Virus record (IMG/VR): IMGVR_UViG_3300035034_002381
Location: 1-64,000 of that record
Length of the DNA: 64,000 nucleotides
Reading direction: 5' to 3' (one strand)
From: a virus
Taxonomy: Duplodnaviria > Heunggongvirae > Uroviricota > Caudoviricetes
In this document: piece by piece, positions 229-10,978 of the stretch
Position numbering within the stretch: the first letter of the stretch is position 1
Layout of the letters: each line of letters starts with the position of its first letter
Program-made: the position numbers and the translations under genes
Notes under the pieces: model-generated
What the model saw: only the letters and a program-made list of their open reading frames with translations
What the model was told of the DNA's origin: nothing
The model's database searches: none

Positions 229-302
229 GGGCCTTTAGCTCAGTTGGTCAGAGCAGTGCGCTCATAACGCAAAGGTCACTGGTTCGAGCCCAGTATGGCC
301 CA
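229..302 (+). tRNA. tRNA, anticodon CAT (Met or Ile2 type)
   Basis: Acceptor GGGCCTT/ATGGCCC, D-arm AGCTCAGTTGGTCAGAGC, anticodon loop CTCATAA, T-arm ACTGG-TTCGAGC-CCAGT. Confidence 0.75.
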
Positions 303-308
303 CAACAT

Positions 309-347
309 ATTCAGATAAGGTTCTGGGTTCGAATCCCAGTCTGAATA
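309..347 (+). other. tRNA minihelix-like fragment: a 7-bp stem ATTCAGA/TCTGAAT enclosing a T-arm (CTGGG-TTCGAAT-CCCAG), with no D-arm or anticodon arm
   Basis: Direct reading of the sequence; sits between two tRNAs. Confidence 0.4.
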
Positions 348-348
348 C

Positions 349-431
349 AGCACAAAGGCGAAACAGGTATTCGTAGCGGATTGTAACCCCGCTGTCTTTT
401 GACATTGTGGGTTCGAGTCCCACTTGTGCTA
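349..431 (+). tRNA. tRNA-Tyr-like (GTA), class II with long variable arm
   Basis: Acceptor AGCACAA/TTGTGCT, anticodon region GCGG-ATTGTAACC-CCGC, variable hairpin, T-arm GTGGG-TTCGAGT-CCCAC. Confidence 0.65.
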
Positions 432-436
432 CAAAT

Positions 437-510
437 AGTCATATAGCTCAATTGGTTGGAGCATCACGCTGATAACGTGAAGGTTATAGGTTCGAGTCCT
501 ATTATGACTA
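437..510 (+). tRNA. tRNA-Ile (GAT)
   Basis: Acceptor AGTCATA/TATGACT, D-arm TAGCTCAATTGGTTGGAGCA, anticodon stem TCACG/CGTGA with loop CTGATAA, T-arm ATAGG-TTCGAGT-CCTAT. Confidence 0.8.
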
Positions 511-511
511 C

Positions 512-586
512 GACGCGGATAAGGCACAGGTAGTCTTGACAGTCTGTAAAACTGTTATGTTATGGGTTCGAGTCCCATGCGCGTCA
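512..586 (+). tRNA. tRNA, anticodon uncertain (loop CTGTAAA suggests GTA)
   Basis: Acceptor GACGCGG/GCGCGTC (one mismatch), anticodon stem GACAGT/ACTGTT, T-arm ATGGG-TTCGAGT-CCCAT. Confidence 0.55.
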
Positions 587-587
587 C

Positions 588-673
588 TGAAGTGTACCCG
601 AGCGGTTTGCAGGGACCAGACTGATATTCTGGGAGTATTTTACTCAACGTGGGTTCGAATCCCATCACTTCAA
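588..673 (+). tRNA. class II tRNA (3-bp D-stem, long variable arm); anticodon unresolved (loop CTGATAT)
   Basis: Acceptor TGAAGTG/CACTTCA, anticodon stem CCAGA/TCTGG, variable hairpin GAGTA/TACTC, T-arm TGGG-TTCGAAT-CCCA. Confidence 0.6.
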
Positions 674-679
674 CCATAT

Positions 680-753
680 CGCGGGGTGCCTGGAGAGGTT
701 CCAGATCGGGCTCATAACTCGAATTAACGTGGGTTCGACTCCCACTCCCGCAA
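680..753 (+). tRNA. tRNA, anticodon CAT (Met/fMet/Ile2 type)
   Basis: Acceptor about CGCGGGG/TCCCGCA, anticodon stem TCGGG/CTCGA with loop CTCATAA, T-arm GTGGG-TTCGACT-CCCAC. Confidence 0.6.
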
Positions 754-755
754 CT

Positions 756-828
756 AGGATAGTAGCTTAGTGGCAAAAGCACAACTTTTACATGGTTGAT
801 ATCGTGGGTTCGAGTCCCATCTATCCTA
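756..828 (+). tRNA. tRNA-Val (TAC)
   Basis: Acceptor AGGATAG/CTATCCT, D-arm TAGCTTAGTGGCAAAAGCA, anticodon stem CAACT/GGTTG with loop TTTACAT, T-arm TGGG-TTCGAGT-CCCA. Confidence 0.75.
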
Positions 829-867
829 CAACATGGGGGAAGACAAAGGTAAATTTATTGAAGATTT

Positions 868-940
868 GGGGCTGTAGCAAAGTTGGTCTATGCGGTGGAT
901 TGAAGATCCATGGATGTCGGTTCGATCCCGACCGGTCTCA
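868..940 (+). tRNA. tRNA-Phe (GAA)
   Basis: Acceptor GGGGCTG/CGGTCTC (G-U rich), anticodon stem GTGGA/TCCAT with loop TTGAAGA, T-arm GTCGG-TTCGATC-CCGAC. Confidence 0.65.
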
Positions 941-1020
941 CAAGATTAAAAAATAGAAATCATGAAAAAAACATTAGATTATCTTTAAAACCTAAAGATA
1001 TGAGCAATGGCATTGAACAT

Positions 1021-1093
1021 GGTGTACATAGCTTAGTGGTAGAGCATCGTCTTGTGGTGGCGAGGGGCGTGAGTTCGAATCTCATTGTACACC
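1021..1093 (+). tRNA. tRNA-His (GTG) with extra G-1 paired to discriminator C
   Basis: G-1 then acceptor GTGTACA/TGTACAC, D-arm TAGCTTAGTGGTAGAGCA, anticodon stem TCGTC/GGCGA with loop TTGTGGT, T-arm GTGAG-TTCGAAT-CTCAT. Confidence 0.75.
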
Positions 1094-1200
1094 CACTTTG
1101 GTCATTTTTGAATTTTGGATAAAAATTGAAAATAACTAAAACTTTCTACATTTAGTATAATATAACCTTGGAAAATTAATAACTTAATCTAAACAAATCT

Positions 1201-10129: not shown

Positions 10130-10135
10130 CTAAAC

Positions 10136-10209
10136 GCAGGTATACCTAAGTGGTTTAAAGGAGCGGATTGCAAACCCGTTATTCATTGGTTCGAATCCAA
10201 TTACCTGCT
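10136..10209 (+). tRNA. tRNA-Cys (GCA)
   Basis: Perfect acceptor GCAGGTA/TACCTGC, anticodon loop TTGCAAA, T-arm ATTGG-TTCGAAT-CCAAT. Confidence 0.7.
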
Positions 10210-10214
10210 CACTT

Positions 10215-10297
10215 GGAAGGTAACTTGATGGTGATAGAGGTAGTTTGCTAAACTACTGGCCGTTTACTCGGTCGAGGTTCGATTCCTCTGCCTTCCG
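10215..10297 (+). tRNA. tRNA-Ser (GCT), class II
   Basis: Acceptor GGAAGGT/GCCTTCC, anticodon stem GTAGT/ACTAC with loop TTGCTAA, variable hairpin GGCCG...CGGTC, T-arm GAGG-TTCGATT-CCTC. Confidence 0.65.
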
Positions 10298-10301
10298 CTA
10301 T

Positions 10302-10379
10302 GCTCCTGTGGATTATGTAAAAGCACAGCTAACACCTTGAGGAGGTGATCCTTTGTGGGTTCGAGTCCCGCCAGGAGTA
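10302..10379 (+). tRNA. atypical 78-nt tRNA (family member C), anticodon loop TTGAGGA (GAG)
   Basis: Acceptor GCTCCTG/CAGGAGT, D-region GATTATGTAAAAGCACAGCTAA, stem CACC/GGTG, T-arm GTGGG-TTCGAGT-CCCGC. Confidence 0.55.
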
Positions 10380-10419
10380 CAAAGAAGCAAAGAGTTAGTT
10401 AGGTTAGACTGGCTTGTTA

Positions 10420-10470
10420 TGTGGTGAAATTGGTAAACGCGAGCGCTTTGGTGCTTAGTAACCTTAACAC
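10420..10470 (+). other. partial tRNA-like paralog (GTGGTGAAATTGGTAAACGC D-region shared with the 10788 element; no T-arm)
   Basis: Sequence similarity only. Confidence 0.25.
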
Positions 10471-10479
10471 TTCTTATTT

Positions 10480-10553
10480 GCTGAGTTAGTATAGTCGGTT
10501 TATTACGATACCCTGGTACGGTATTAACACCAGTTCGATTCTGGTACTCAGCT
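10480..10553 (+). tRNA. tRNA-Thr (GGT)
   Basis: Perfect acceptor GCTGAGT/ACTCAGC, anticodon stem ATACC/GGTAT with loop CTGGTAC, T-arm ACCAG-TTCGATT-CTGGT. Confidence 0.75.
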
Positions 10554-10565
10554 CATGAAAAATAT

Positions 10566-10645
10566 GCCTCTGTGGATTATGTAAATTGGCACAGCTAACG
10601 GTTTCAAACTCCGATCTTTTATGGGTTCGAATCCCATCAGAGGCA
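10566..10645 (+). tRNA. atypical 80-nt tRNA (family member D), anticodon loop TTCAAAC (CAA)
   Basis: Perfect acceptor GCCTCTG/CAGAGGC, D-region GATTATGTAAATTGGCACAGCTAA, stem CGG(T)/(T)CCG, T-arm ATGGG-TTCGAAT-CCCAT. Confidence 0.55.
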
Positions 10646-10661
10646 CAAGTAGGAGAAATTT

Positions 10662-10746
10662 AGTCCAGTGGCGAAACAGGTATACGCACAAGATTTAAGC
10701 TCTTGCTTCCATTGAGGAATTGCGGGTTCGATTCCCGCCTGGATTA
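10662..10746 (+). tRNA. tRNA-Leu (TAA), class II
   Basis: Acceptor AGTCCAG/CTGGATT, anticodon stem CAAGA/TCTTG with loop TTTAAGC, variable hairpin TTCC-ATTGA-GGAA, T-arm GCGGG-TTCGATT-CCCGC. Confidence 0.7.
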
Positions 10747-10750
10747 CTAA

Positions 10751-10785
10751 GTTAGTACGGGTTCGATCCCCGTCTTGGCTACTAA
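10751..10785 (+). other. isolated T-arm-like hairpin ACGGG-TTCGATC-CCCGT (tRNA fragment)
   Basis: Seen in sequence. Confidence 0.3.
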
Positions 10786-10787
10786 AT

Positions 10788-10899
10788 TTGACCGTGGTGA
10801 AATTGGTAAACACACCCTTAAATCAGGGAGTATGAGAATATGTACTTGAAGCTGACGCAGAACATCATACATATGTAGGTTCGAATCCTATCGGTCGAA
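10788..10899 (+). ncRNA. 112-nt tRNA-like RNA with a ~44-nt insertion: a 7-bp hairpin ATATGTA...TACATAT between the anticodon-arm-like region and the T-arm
   Basis: Acceptor TTGACCG/CGGTCGA, D-region GTGAAATTGGTAAACAC, CCCT-TAAATC-AGGG, inserted hairpin 10838-10874, T-arm GTAGG-TTCGAAT-CCTAT. Confidence 0.45.
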
Positions 10900-10904
10900 C
10901 AAAT

Positions 10905-10978
10905 GCCTGGGTAGCTCAGTTGGATAGAGCATCGGATTTCTAATCCGACGGTCATGAGTTCGAATCTCATCTCGGGTA
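10905..10978 (+). tRNA. tRNA-Arg (TCT), second copy
   Basis: Acceptor GCCTGGG/CTCGGGT (G-U rich), canonical D-arm TAGCTCAGTTGGATAGAGC, anticodon stem TCGGA/TCCGA with loop TTTCTAA, T-arm ATGAG-TTCGAAT-CTCAT. Confidence 0.65.

Follow-up and report, generated by a model that had tools for sequence, protein, structure and literature searches.

Huge phages encode up to 67 tRNAs, and the number of tRNAs climbs with genome size (PMC7162821). Phage tRNA clusters, as well as bacteria, contain (8/4) tRNA-Ser (Mukai et al. 2017, PMC5389517), and nematodes carry nev-tRNAs, class II tRNAs with Gly or Ile anticodons that are charged with Leu (PMC3333845). For phage tRNAs with changes in the anticodon loop, escape from anticodon nucleases has been proposed (van den Berg et al. 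2023, PMC10264068). Here we describe the tRNA array at positions 229-10978 of a 64,000-nt stretch of viral DNA (IMG/VR record IMGVR_UViG_3300035034_002381, positions 1 to 64,000; hereafter the window). The array is real, and as a feature class it is already known for huge phages. What is new here, as read from the genes, is a predicted non-cloverleaf fold of phage tRNA-Leu and a systematic pairing of canonical with non-canonical isoacceptors.

A predicted phage-specific tRNA-Leu fold

Four units of 78-80 nt in the third block of the array had a conserved D region in common and were grouped as family X. Their bit scores below refer to the Rfam tRNA model and to R1, a covariance model of the family.

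9797..9876 (+), family X unit X1, tRNA-Leu-like, anticodon TAG; R1 93.5 bits, missed by default ARAGORN
9882..9961 (+), family X unit X2, anticodon TAA; R1 104 bits, Rfam tRNA 33.7 bits
10302..10379 (+), family X unit X3, anticodon GAG, 78 nt; ARAGORN, R1 85 bits
10566..10645 (+), family X unit X4, anticodon CAA; R1 100.9 bits

Pattern scans of IMG/VR and metagenomes, followed by searches with R1, yielded 46 distinct family X sequences. RNAalifold and explicit pair counts defined an acceptor stem (columns 1-7/73-79), a T arm (56-60/68-72), an anticodon stem of just 4 bp (34-37/45-48) and a new helix, P2 (9-12/49-52). In these helices 98.5% of cells were paired, none of 500 shuffles matched the observed covariation, and shifting the 3' partners by 1-3 columns either way abolished the signal. 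Within P2, pair 10:51 was GC in 31 sequences and AU in 14, and pair 11:50 was CG in 22, AU in 19 and UA in 5. A small D hairpin was also supported (pair 16:30 with GC 41, AU 2, UA 1 and GU 1; pair 17:29 with UG 29 and CG 16), closing an 11-nt Leu-type loop, AAAUUGGCACA.

Two subtypes were distinguished. In the U12/A33/A49 subtype (n = 28), a 4-bp anticodon stem was combined with a 4-bp P2, and in the U12/C33/G49 subtype (n = 16), a 5-bp anticodon stem was combined with a 3-bp P2; the 3' strand therefore always gives eight contiguous pairs. P2 encloses both the D hairpin and the anticodon arm, producing two three-way junctions in place of the one four-way junction of the cloverleaf. The canonical D stem (10-13/22-25) was not found, as columns 9-12 pair with 49-52 through compensatory changes. 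The long variable arm of a canonical class II tRNA-Leu was also missing, with 7 nt between the anticodon and T stems. The Leu anticodon and the discriminator A73 were each present in 46 of 46 sequences (TAG 19, CAA 15, TAA 11, GAG 1), and G1.U72 was present in 33 of 46; the class II tRNA-Leu at 9715 likewise has G1.U72 and A73. On this covariation evidence, family X is a phage-specific tRNA-Leu with a predicted fold other than the cloverleaf. The family X units would be working Leu decoders, because the only GAG and CAA anticodons in the window come from them. Their anticodons diversify strictly within Leu, which would favour decoding over a decoy role.

A scan of 185,579 genomes of bacteria and archaea did not return the exact D-region pattern of family X. 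In the 50,697 deposited phage records, the gene was found in Synechococcus phage BUCT-ZZ01, where it scored 91 bits with R1, and in Rhizobium phage RHph_I1_18, where it scored 86 bits; neither record annotates it. Both copies lie on the minus strand, at 122324-122403 of ON615601.1 (BUCT-ZZ01) and at 9263-9342 of MN988519.1 (RHph_I1_18). Among large phages family X is widespread, extending at least to those of cyanobacteria and rhizobia. R1 separated family X (60-104 bits) from class-I phage tRNA-Leu (~55 bits) and from other tRNAs (at most 40 bits). Since default ARAGORN detected one of the four window copies and missed three, and since two cultured-phage records lack the annotation, tRNA censuses of phages may miss such genes. 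In the searchable literature, which leaves out most subscription journals, neither family X nor class-swapped phage tRNAs nor the systematic pairing of isoacceptors was found described, so that an earlier account may exist.

An unannotated Leu-related tRNA-like unit was seen in Aeromonas phage Aeh1 (NC_005260.1, 104727-104781) and in other T4-like Aeromonas phages; the Aeh1 unit has an irregular anticodon loop, GCAGAAA, and scored 32 bits with R1.

Duplicated anticodons and class swaps

Each duplicated anticodon in the window was represented by one canonical and one structurally different tRNA, and not by plain copies. The members other than family X, and the three Ser tRNAs, are as follows.

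229..302 (+), tRNA CAT, canonical cloverleaf, elongator Met or Ile2 (lysidine type), the two being indistinguishable here; ARAGORN, Rfam 65.4 bits
349..431 (+), tRNA-Tyr GTA, canonical, class II (long variable arm), A73; ARAGORN, Rfam 45.3 bits
437..510 (+), tRNA-Ile GAT, canonical class I; Rfam 74.5 bits
512..586 (+), class-I-shaped tRNA with Tyr anticodon GTA; ARAGORN, under the Rfam tRNA threshold, tRNA-Sec 31.5 bits
588..676 (+), class-II-shaped tRNA with Ile anticodon GAT, 3-bp D stem, A73, encoded CCA; ARAGORN, Rfam 51.1 bits
680..753 (+), initiator-like tRNA CAT, C1xA72 mismatch, acceptor stem 6/7 paired; ARAGORN, Rfam 38.8 bits
3901..3975 (+), divergent tRNA CAT, 1:72 mismatch; ARAGORN, Rfam 28.6 bits, just below threshold
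9155..9245 (+), tRNA-Ser TGA, 8/4 type, U73; relaxed ARAGORN, tRNA-Sec 30.9 bits, sequence reading
9277..9362 (+), tRNA-Ser GGA, 8/4 type, G73; ARAGORN, acceptor 8/8 and T stem 4/4 paired
9715..9795 (+), tRNA-Leu TAG, canonical class II, G1.U72, A73; Rfam 54.4 bits
10057..10129 (+), tRNA-Arg TCT, divergent copy, U73; Rfam 43 bits
10215..10297 (+), tRNA-Ser GCT, 8/4 type, G73; ARAGORN, acceptor 8/8 and T stem 4/4 paired
10662..10746 (+), tRNA-Leu TAA, canonical class II; Rfam 52.6 bits
10905..10978 (+), tRNA-Arg TCT, canonical, A73; Rfam 68.5 bits

Bacterial tRNA-Tyr is normally class II, and the canonical Tyr GTA gene at 349-431 is accompanied by the class-I-shaped one at 512-586. The swap runs in the opposite direction for Ile GAT, where the class I gene at 437-510 is matched by a gene with a long variable arm at 588-676. 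Both Leu pairs set a class II tRNA against family X (TAG, 9715-9795 and X1; TAA, 10662-10746 and X2), and the Arg TCT pair sets the A73 gene at 10905-10978 against the lower-scoring U73 gene at 10057-10129. Among the CAT genes, the canonical one at 229-302 stands against the initiator-like unit at 680-753 and the divergent unit at 3901-3975. The 8/4 form was borne out by complete pairing at 9277-9362 and 10215-10297, and 9155-9245 fits it by sequence reading.

Class swaps were also seen in a related 344-kb IMG/VR contig (IMGVR_UViG_3300032254_000001, hereafter L002), which has 29 tRNAs within 13.5 kb. Its class-II-shaped tRNAs (86-92 nt) comprise Gln TTG, Ile GAT, Ile TAT, Lys TTT, Thr TGT, Glu TTC and an initiator-like Met. 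They adjoin class I versions with the same discriminator, and the GAT counterpart of 588-676 adjoins a class I GAT, so that the class swap is recurrent in this phage group. Nearly all L002 tRNAs encode CCA, in contrast to the window units; given its encoded CCA, 588-676 may have been acquired from an L002-type lineage.

Constraint and turnover in a near-identical genome

A near-identical genome (L097) was 93-99.7% identical to the window over aligned blocks, with most tRNAs identical. X2 differed at eight positions while its neighbouring tRNAs were identical. The differences included two compensatory anticodon-stem pairs, one compensatory T-stem pair and loop positions 32 and 38, with the anticodon TAA unchanged; the compensatory changes show structural constraint. 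The pattern matches the evasion-type changes that have been proposed (PMC10264068), and recombination with another allele could give the same pattern. The Leu-type unit at 10788-10899 differed by four changes, all within its variable insert.

Turnover was also evident, as the two genomes differ by several indels. In L097 a different unit replaces X1, the 145-nt spacer at window 9567-9714 is missing, and a 1.17-kb insertion (L097 3488-4661, against window 10646-10650) lies between X4 and tRNA-Leu TAA, with two small open reading frames (ORFs; 176 and 121 aa) and one additional tRNA-like unit.

Size and authenticity of the array

A preliminary description of the window had reported nine tRNAs in the first block, two or more in the second and about 15 in the third. 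These counts agree with ours. ARAGORN at default settings found 21 tRNA genes, all on the + strand (9 at 229-1094, 2 at 3901-4355 and 10 at 9277-10979), and 25 at a relaxed threshold, or 26 with introns allowed. Rfam found 16 tRNAs at its gathering scores (29 bits for tRNA, 47 bits for tRNA-Sec). With laxer filters, 10788-10899, 9882-9961 and 10302-10379 also reached at least 29 bits, giving 19 in total, and the Ser-type genes and 511-586 matched the tRNA-Sec model at 31-37 bits, below its gathering score. Failure in structural scoring had been named as a possible refutation, and the array passes such scoring. Its three CAT (229, 680, 3901) and two TCT (10057, 10905) anticodons and the Ser anticodons TGA, GGA and GCT (9155, 9277, 10215) were identified correctly in that description; Leu TAG and TAA are present as well, although undercounted, there being two of each in addition to GAG and CAA. 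The remaining tRNA genes and the hairpins that flank the blocks are listed here.

190..227 (+), stem-loop and T-run directly 5' of block 1, laid out as at 9117-9146; sequence reading
756..828 (+), tRNA-Val TAC; Rfam 66.6 bits
868..940 (+), tRNA-Phe GAA; Rfam 58.4 bits
1021..1093 (+), tRNA-His GTG, encoded G-1, C73; Rfam 62.6 bits, sequence
4281..4354 (+), tRNA-Val GAC; Rfam 61.6 bits
9117..9146 (+), terminator-like hairpin, 12 bp and T-run, directly 5' of block 3
9493..9565 (+), tRNA-Thr TGT; Rfam 55.8 bits
10136..10209 (+), tRNA-Cys GCA; Rfam 61.7 bits
10480..10553 (+), tRNA-Thr GGT; Rfam 61.5 bits
10788..10899 (+), 112-nt Leu-type tRNA-like unit, ~45-nt variable insert, irregular anticodon loop; Rfam 35.7 bits, acceptor 7/7 and T stem 5/5 paired

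Features independent of the tRNA models were consistent with these calls. The T-loop motif GTTCRANTC occurred 31 times against 4.3 expected, a number reached in none of 100 shuffles, and 29 of the 31 copies lay on the + strand within 327-10966. The GC content of the tRNAs was 48.7%, compared with 32.1% for the window. Position 74 was C in all 29 tRNA or tRNA-like units of the window and in all eight units of an upstream block (37/37; L236 1-1570), a strong shared signature because C makes up just 15.5% of the region. The trailer after C74 usually read CAA or CTA (position 74 at, for example, 303, 432, 511, 9877 and 10646), and CCA was encoded only in 588-676, so the 3' ends would be completed by a CCA-adding enzyme.

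The upstream block was found on the ENA contig k141_21517 (64,373 nt). Over the 12,661 nt compared, this contig matches the window without a difference, and its first nucleotide lies 5,246 nt upstream of the window. This fourth block lies 3.7-5.2 kb upstream of the window and contains eight tRNAs: Pro TGG, two Gly TCC, Gly GCC, a Trp-like CCA, Arg ACG, Arg TCG and Met CAT, the fourth CAT. The total complement is at least 33 tRNAs, and k141_21517 begins inside this block. The array consists of ~26 full-length tRNA units in the window, eight upstream and interspersed decayed fragments. Blocks 1 and 3 are each directly preceded by one of the two stem-loops with T-runs.

A repeated promoter-like motif (CTAAAACTTT, ~15 nt, then TATAATATAA) was also observed at 1133-1165, 3720-3748 and 10980-11012, directly 3' of tRNA blocks and 5' of the following ORFs.

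Degenerate and rearranged units

Between the tRNA genes lie degenerate tRNA-like units that are shorter, insert-bearing or AT-rich; the Leu-type unit at 10788-10899 listed above also belongs with them. Fold z-scores refer to minimum free energy (MFE).

309..347 (+), minihelix, a 7-bp acceptor joined to a T arm, without D or anticodon arm, then A73-CAG
3340..3425 (+), Y1, degenerate tRNA-like unit, GC 37%; sequence reading, repeat family D10, fold
3433..3556 (+), Z1, 124-nt tRNA-like RNA, GC 43%; ARAGORN with introns allowed, MFE z -2.4
3569..3640 (+), Z2, partial copy of the Z1 5' half, without T arm; sequence reading, fold
3773..3878 (+), Y2, apparently decayed tRNA-like unit, GC 28%; sequence reading, repeats, fold
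4358..4410 (+), Y4, fragment with palindrome ATTCTACTTAGAAT, then an isolated T arm; sequence reading, repeats, T-loop motif
9366..9491 (+), Y3, AT-rich unit in permuted order, GC 30%; sequence reading, z -1.6
10381..10479 (+), spacer with a truncated Leu-type 5' half (acceptor strand, D arm, part of the anticodon arm); sequence reading, z -0.4
10748..10782 (+), duplicated 3' fragment (T arm and 3' acceptor strand) of tRNA-Leu TAA; 81% identical repeat, family D4

The minihelix scored 27.4 bits with R1 with its middle deleted, and folded at -13.7 kcal/mol (z -2.75). Z1 has a perfect 7-bp acceptor stem, a D arm and a T arm, with an 8-bp stem and an 11-nt loop at the anticodon position; a 47-nt insert containing CTTAGAATAACTAA occupies the variable position, and the unit ends in A73-CAA. 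A scan of IMG/VR for CTTAGAATAACTAA gave chance matches only. Z1 may be a genuine RNA.

Y1 is closed by an 8-bp AT-rich stem (ATTCTTCT/AGAAGAAT) and contains a palindromic insert (CTTAGAATC) followed by D-, anticodon- and T-like hairpins. Y2 combines the closing stem ATTCGACT/AGTCGAAT with a CTTAGAATA insert. Y3, closed by GTTCTTCT/AGAAGAAC, runs in the order T arm, acceptor-like hairpin, D-like arm and anticodon-like arm, and is identical in L097. The 8-bp closing stems of Y1-Y3 covary between copies, and the palindromic insert ATTCTnnnTAGAAT(A) is common to all three. The GC content of Y2 and Y3 (28-30%) is under the genome background, and fold z-scores ranged from -1.2 to -1.8. Searches found no homologues of the Y and Z elements beyond L097. 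Y1-Y4 and the other degenerate AT-rich units are probably decayed or rearranged tRNA genes.

A functional permuted tRNA was considered for 9366-9491. The permuted order gave a T arm, an acceptor hairpin with 6/7 bp, a D arm, an anticodon arm and an 8-bp outer stem; given the low GC content, the weak fold (z -1.6) and the lack of an independent homologue, this identity was not supported, and Y3 is most likely a rearranged relic. A YrlA-type Y RNA was also rejected. This family gave just two hits, scoring 24.6 and 21.8 bits where the threshold is 69; each runs from the T arm of one tRNA into the 5' half of the following one, an artefact of the tandem arrangement of the genes. The neighbouring ORFs yielded no TROVE/Ro domain. 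An Rfam scan of the spacers returned no ribozyme and no other RNA family.

The CTTAGAATA motif was located at 3343-3351, 3491-3499, 3777-3785, 4364-4372, 9373-9381 and 16679-16687. Five copies are exact, and four of these lie in tRNA blocks, inside degenerate tRNA-like units, at varying positions relative to the tRNA body; on this number and placement, a general promoter was rejected. CTTAGAATA is part of ATTCTnnnTAGAAT. Because ATTCTnnnTAGAAT is palindromic, it more likely marks a site bound by protein at the DNA level or the footprint that a small mobile insert left behind, and CTTAGAATA may be either of these.

Source phage and relatives

Products encoded in the window include a head maturation protease, a major head protein, a homing endonuclease and a nicotinamide phosphoribosyltransferase (NAMPT) according to PHROGs, as well as glycosyltransferases, a cytosine DNA methylase and a thymidylate-synthase-like protein. 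The protease, head protein and homing endonuclease, together with the kinship of the capsid, place the array in a phage genome. The major head protein is T4-type and shares 40-43% identity with its counterparts in Prevotella Lak megaphages and in a 462-kb uncultured phage, and it resembles those of many T4-like cyanophages more weakly. The phage is not T5-like. Megablast of window positions 1-12000 against 50,697 deposited phage records gave no DNA-level match. The ORFs are long and contiguous in the standard genetic code (stops TAA 36, TGA 7 and TAG 1), and no suppressor tRNA was found among the tRNA calls of the window.

Relatives were reached through a protein search with the 647-aa ORF at 4529-6472, which lies between tRNA blocks 2 and 3, and subsequent contig look-ups. 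This ORF has 95 homologues (38-99% identity), mostly on metagenome or phage-like contigs of which the largest is 447 kb. It matches PHROG 850, labelled 'RNA-binding protein' (E 8e-16), and has no match in Pfam, NCBIfam or PDB; a related-locus search of IMG/VR with the same ORF recovered none. One relative (L239; GCA_033813855.1, JAPZCB010000025.1) has 44 tRNAs within 22 kb, with HNH, GIY-YIG and DUF559 endonuclease genes interleaved among them, and carries class-I-shaped Leu CAA and TAG where the window phage has family X. A further tRNA call in this relative, at 14326-14396, has the anticodon TTA and is a possible ochre suppressor; it overlaps a small called ORF.

Several other loci in the window were noted. 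A 561-aa homing/HNH endonuclease ORF (21117-22802; PHROG 3339, E 7e-105) directly follows the major head protein gene. An NAD salvage cluster at 34123-37714 contains the nicotinamide phosphoribosyltransferase gene (PHROG 448, E 8e-172), a phosphoribosyl-synthetase-like ORF and a Zeta-toxin/AAA_33 kinase-like ORF with an NT5C domain. At 11261-11326, just 5' of the ORF at 11326-11598, a 33-nt sequence is perfectly duplicated in tandem (TGTAACTCAAAAATCCAAAACAATTTTCTACTA, two copies).

Possible function of the array

We consider it probable, at roughly 80%, that this is a genuine array of a large T4-type, Lak-related phage, in which canonical and non-canonical isoacceptors, the phage-specific family X among them, are transcribed polycistronically and charged by host or phage enzymes. 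The blocks would be co-transcribed with the surrounding + strand genes as polycistronic precursors, from which RNase P and 3' nucleases would excise the tRNAs. A CCA-adding enzyme would finish the 3' ends, apart from the one gene that encodes the full CCA, and charging would fall to host synthetases or to phage synthetases encoded elsewhere. The mature tRNAs would then serve in translating the AT-rich phage mRNAs. The set is predicted to decode whole boxes (Leu, Ser, Thr, Val, Ile, Phe, Tyr, His, Cys, Met and Arg-AGR), and the upstream block would add Pro, Gly, Trp and Arg-CGN. Structural doubling could keep phage translation supplied if one tRNA shape or sequence were attacked or depleted.

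Several observations weigh against parts of this picture. The units at 3340-3425, 3773-3878, 9366-9491, 10381-10479 and 10748-10782 are AT-rich and weakly folded, have homologues only in L097 and are probably non-functional. No tRNA-processing or repair gene was recognised beside the blocks, and neither a tRNA ligase nor a CCA-adding enzyme, nuclease or synthetase emerged when the inter-block ORFs were searched against Pfam, NCBIfam, PHROGs and PDB. The sole traces were the PHROG label of the 647-aa ORF and, in the 120-aa ORF at 8274-8636, a weak match to a tRNA ligase cyclic phosphodiesterase (2H/CPD-like; 17.8 bits against a cut-off of 23), which, if true, would be a pointer to tRNA repair. 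Single-sequence MFE folding of family X was inconsistent and did not recover the P2 structure, and the apparent invariance of the 3' part of the D region is inflated, as the search patterns partly fixed it. The stack of P2 and the anticodon stem spans 8 bp, compared with ~10 layers in canonical tRNA, which puts compatibility with the ribosome at issue.

The preliminary description had proposed that the array adapts translation to AT-rich codon usage and may also buffer against tRNA-targeting defences. Both roles are plausible, and a mixture of the two appears most likely. Codon compensation alone, with tRNAs supplied for the over-used A/T-ending codons and duplicates raising their dose, is possible but doubtful. 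GC at third codon positions is 20%, and the most over-used codons, TTA (relative synonymous codon usage 2.82) and AGA (3.66), are read by the duplicated TAA and TCT anticodons; the growth of tRNA number with genome size in huge phages (PMC7162821) points the same way. The set, however, reads all six Leu codons, thanks to the GAG and CAA anticodons of family X, and all six Ser, all Thr and all Val codons. Rare codons are thereby covered (CTC, CTG, TCG, ACG, GTG and AGG, through G34/U34 tRNAs and the dedicated GAG), yet the 17.9 kb available showed no tRNA for Lys, Glu, Asn, Asp, Gln or Ala, all of them abundant amino acids, and the codons for Lys, Glu, Asn and Asp are very abundant. Codon adaptation would thus account for the doubling of TAA and TCT but not for the coverage of rare codons. 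A need for dosage would, moreover, be served by plain duplicates and not by structurally different molecules. That feature suits a role in resisting host nucleases, tRNA depletion or the phage's own destruction of host tRNAs, which differently shaped isoacceptors would survive. T5 tRNAs reportedly counter PARIS and retron effectors. As a sole explanation, we regard this resistance as equally uncertain. In its favour, every duplicated anticodon forms a canonical/non-canonical pair, whole-box coverage suits replacement better than supplementation, and X2 has a remodelled anticodon stem and altered positions 32/38 around a retained anticodon, as proposed for evasion (PMC10264068). The X2 differences may nevertheless stem from recombination with another allele and not from selection, and tRNA-Lys, the classic PrrC/PARIS target, was not found in the available sequence.

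Two further explanations were judged much less probable. If the cluster were decaying, the non-canonical units would be pseudogenes left by recombination or homing-endonuclease traffic, and only the high-scoring tRNAs would work. The minihelix, the separate 5' and 3' halves and the AT-rich Y1-Y4 relics would fit such decay, as would the indels and the 1.17-kb insertion that distinguish L097 and the HNH, GIY-YIG and DUF559 genes between the tRNAs of L239. This is improbable as a general account, however, since family X shows compensatory changes across 46 sequences from very different phages, with Leu anticodons and A73 kept, and the C74 trailer and high GC content are common to the non-canonical units. 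In addition, 8/4 tRNA-Ser are known in bacteria and phages, and 8/4 allo-tRNAs worked in translation in E. coli (PMC5389517). Least likely of all is recoding by chimeric tRNAs, in which a mismatch between body and anticodon class would lead to non-cognate charging of 588-676 or family X and change the proteome of phage or host. A long variable arm and A73 suffice for anticodon-independent recognition by LeuRS, and 588-676 combines these two features. Nematode class II tRNAs with Ile or Gly anticodons take Leu (PMC3333845), and allo-tRNAs with Leu anticodons insert Ser (PMC5389517). Against recoding, the class-II-shaped Gln, Lys, Thr, Ile and initiator-like tRNAs of L002 have the same discriminator and 1:72 features as their class I partners, which we read as indicating cognate charging. 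G1.U72 and A73 are common to family X and the class II tRNA-Leu at 9715, and the window ORFs read normally in the standard code.

Returning to the genuine, paired array, a broader proposal can be put forward only tentatively: that large T4-type phages keep a second, structurally orthogonal set of isoacceptors (family X Leu, Ile with a long variable arm, Tyr without one, 8/4 Ser) that would escape nucleases of the host or of the phage's own shut-off while still being charged and used by the ribosome. If this were true, family X would be a natural tRNA of a bacterial system that breaks the cloverleaf rule. If charged and decoding, it would bear on what LeuRS, EF-Tu and the ribosome require of a tRNA, and on the existence of a natural scaffold for orthogonal tRNAs. 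Whether phage tRNA redundancy reflects supply or escape from tRNA-targeting immunity would also become testable.

Comparison with known systems

The array resembles those of huge phages and Lak phages (Al-Shayeb et al. 2020, PMC7162821) in having dozens of clustered tRNA genes diverged from host tRNAs. Lak phages are reported to be alternatively coded (PMC8346664), whereas the window phage uses the standard code and has no suppressor tRNA. The three Ser tRNAs of the window share the 8-bp acceptor, 4-bp T stem and long variable arm of (8/4) tRNA-Ser (PMC5389517). An allo-tRNA identity, which requires an 8/4 or 9/3 form, a long variable arm and Ser identity, was considered for family X and 588-676 and rejected, as both read 7/5; unlike allo-tRNAs, family X also lacks the long variable arm and has A73.

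As in the nev-tRNAs (PMC3333845), a long variable arm is joined to an Ile anticodon in 588-676. The nev-tRNAs are nuclear genes of nematodes for which charging with Leu has been shown, whereas the phage unit is known from its gene, and its L002 counterparts retain the acceptor features of the cognate class I tRNA. Phage tRNAs for which resistance to tRNA-targeting defences has been proposed (PMC10264068) are isoacceptors altered in or near the anticodon loop, as is X2 relative to L097. The differences within the window, as read from the genes, extend to the whole fold, in the class swaps and in P2.

The nearest annotated kin of family X are class-I-shaped tRNA-Leu of 75-77 nt, found in the T5-like Salmonella phage STG2, in Mycobacterium phage Myrna (gene 81) and in many others. 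They have in common with family X a short variable loop, a Leu-type D loop (AAATTGG...), G1.U72 and A73. Family X differs in its length of 80 nt, with five additional nucleotides 5' of the D arm whose pairing with the variable loop forms P2, and in its anticodon stem of 4-5 bp, contiguous with P2. Family X thus looks like a derived variant of the class-I-shaped phage tRNA-Leu to which a 5-nt insert has been added.

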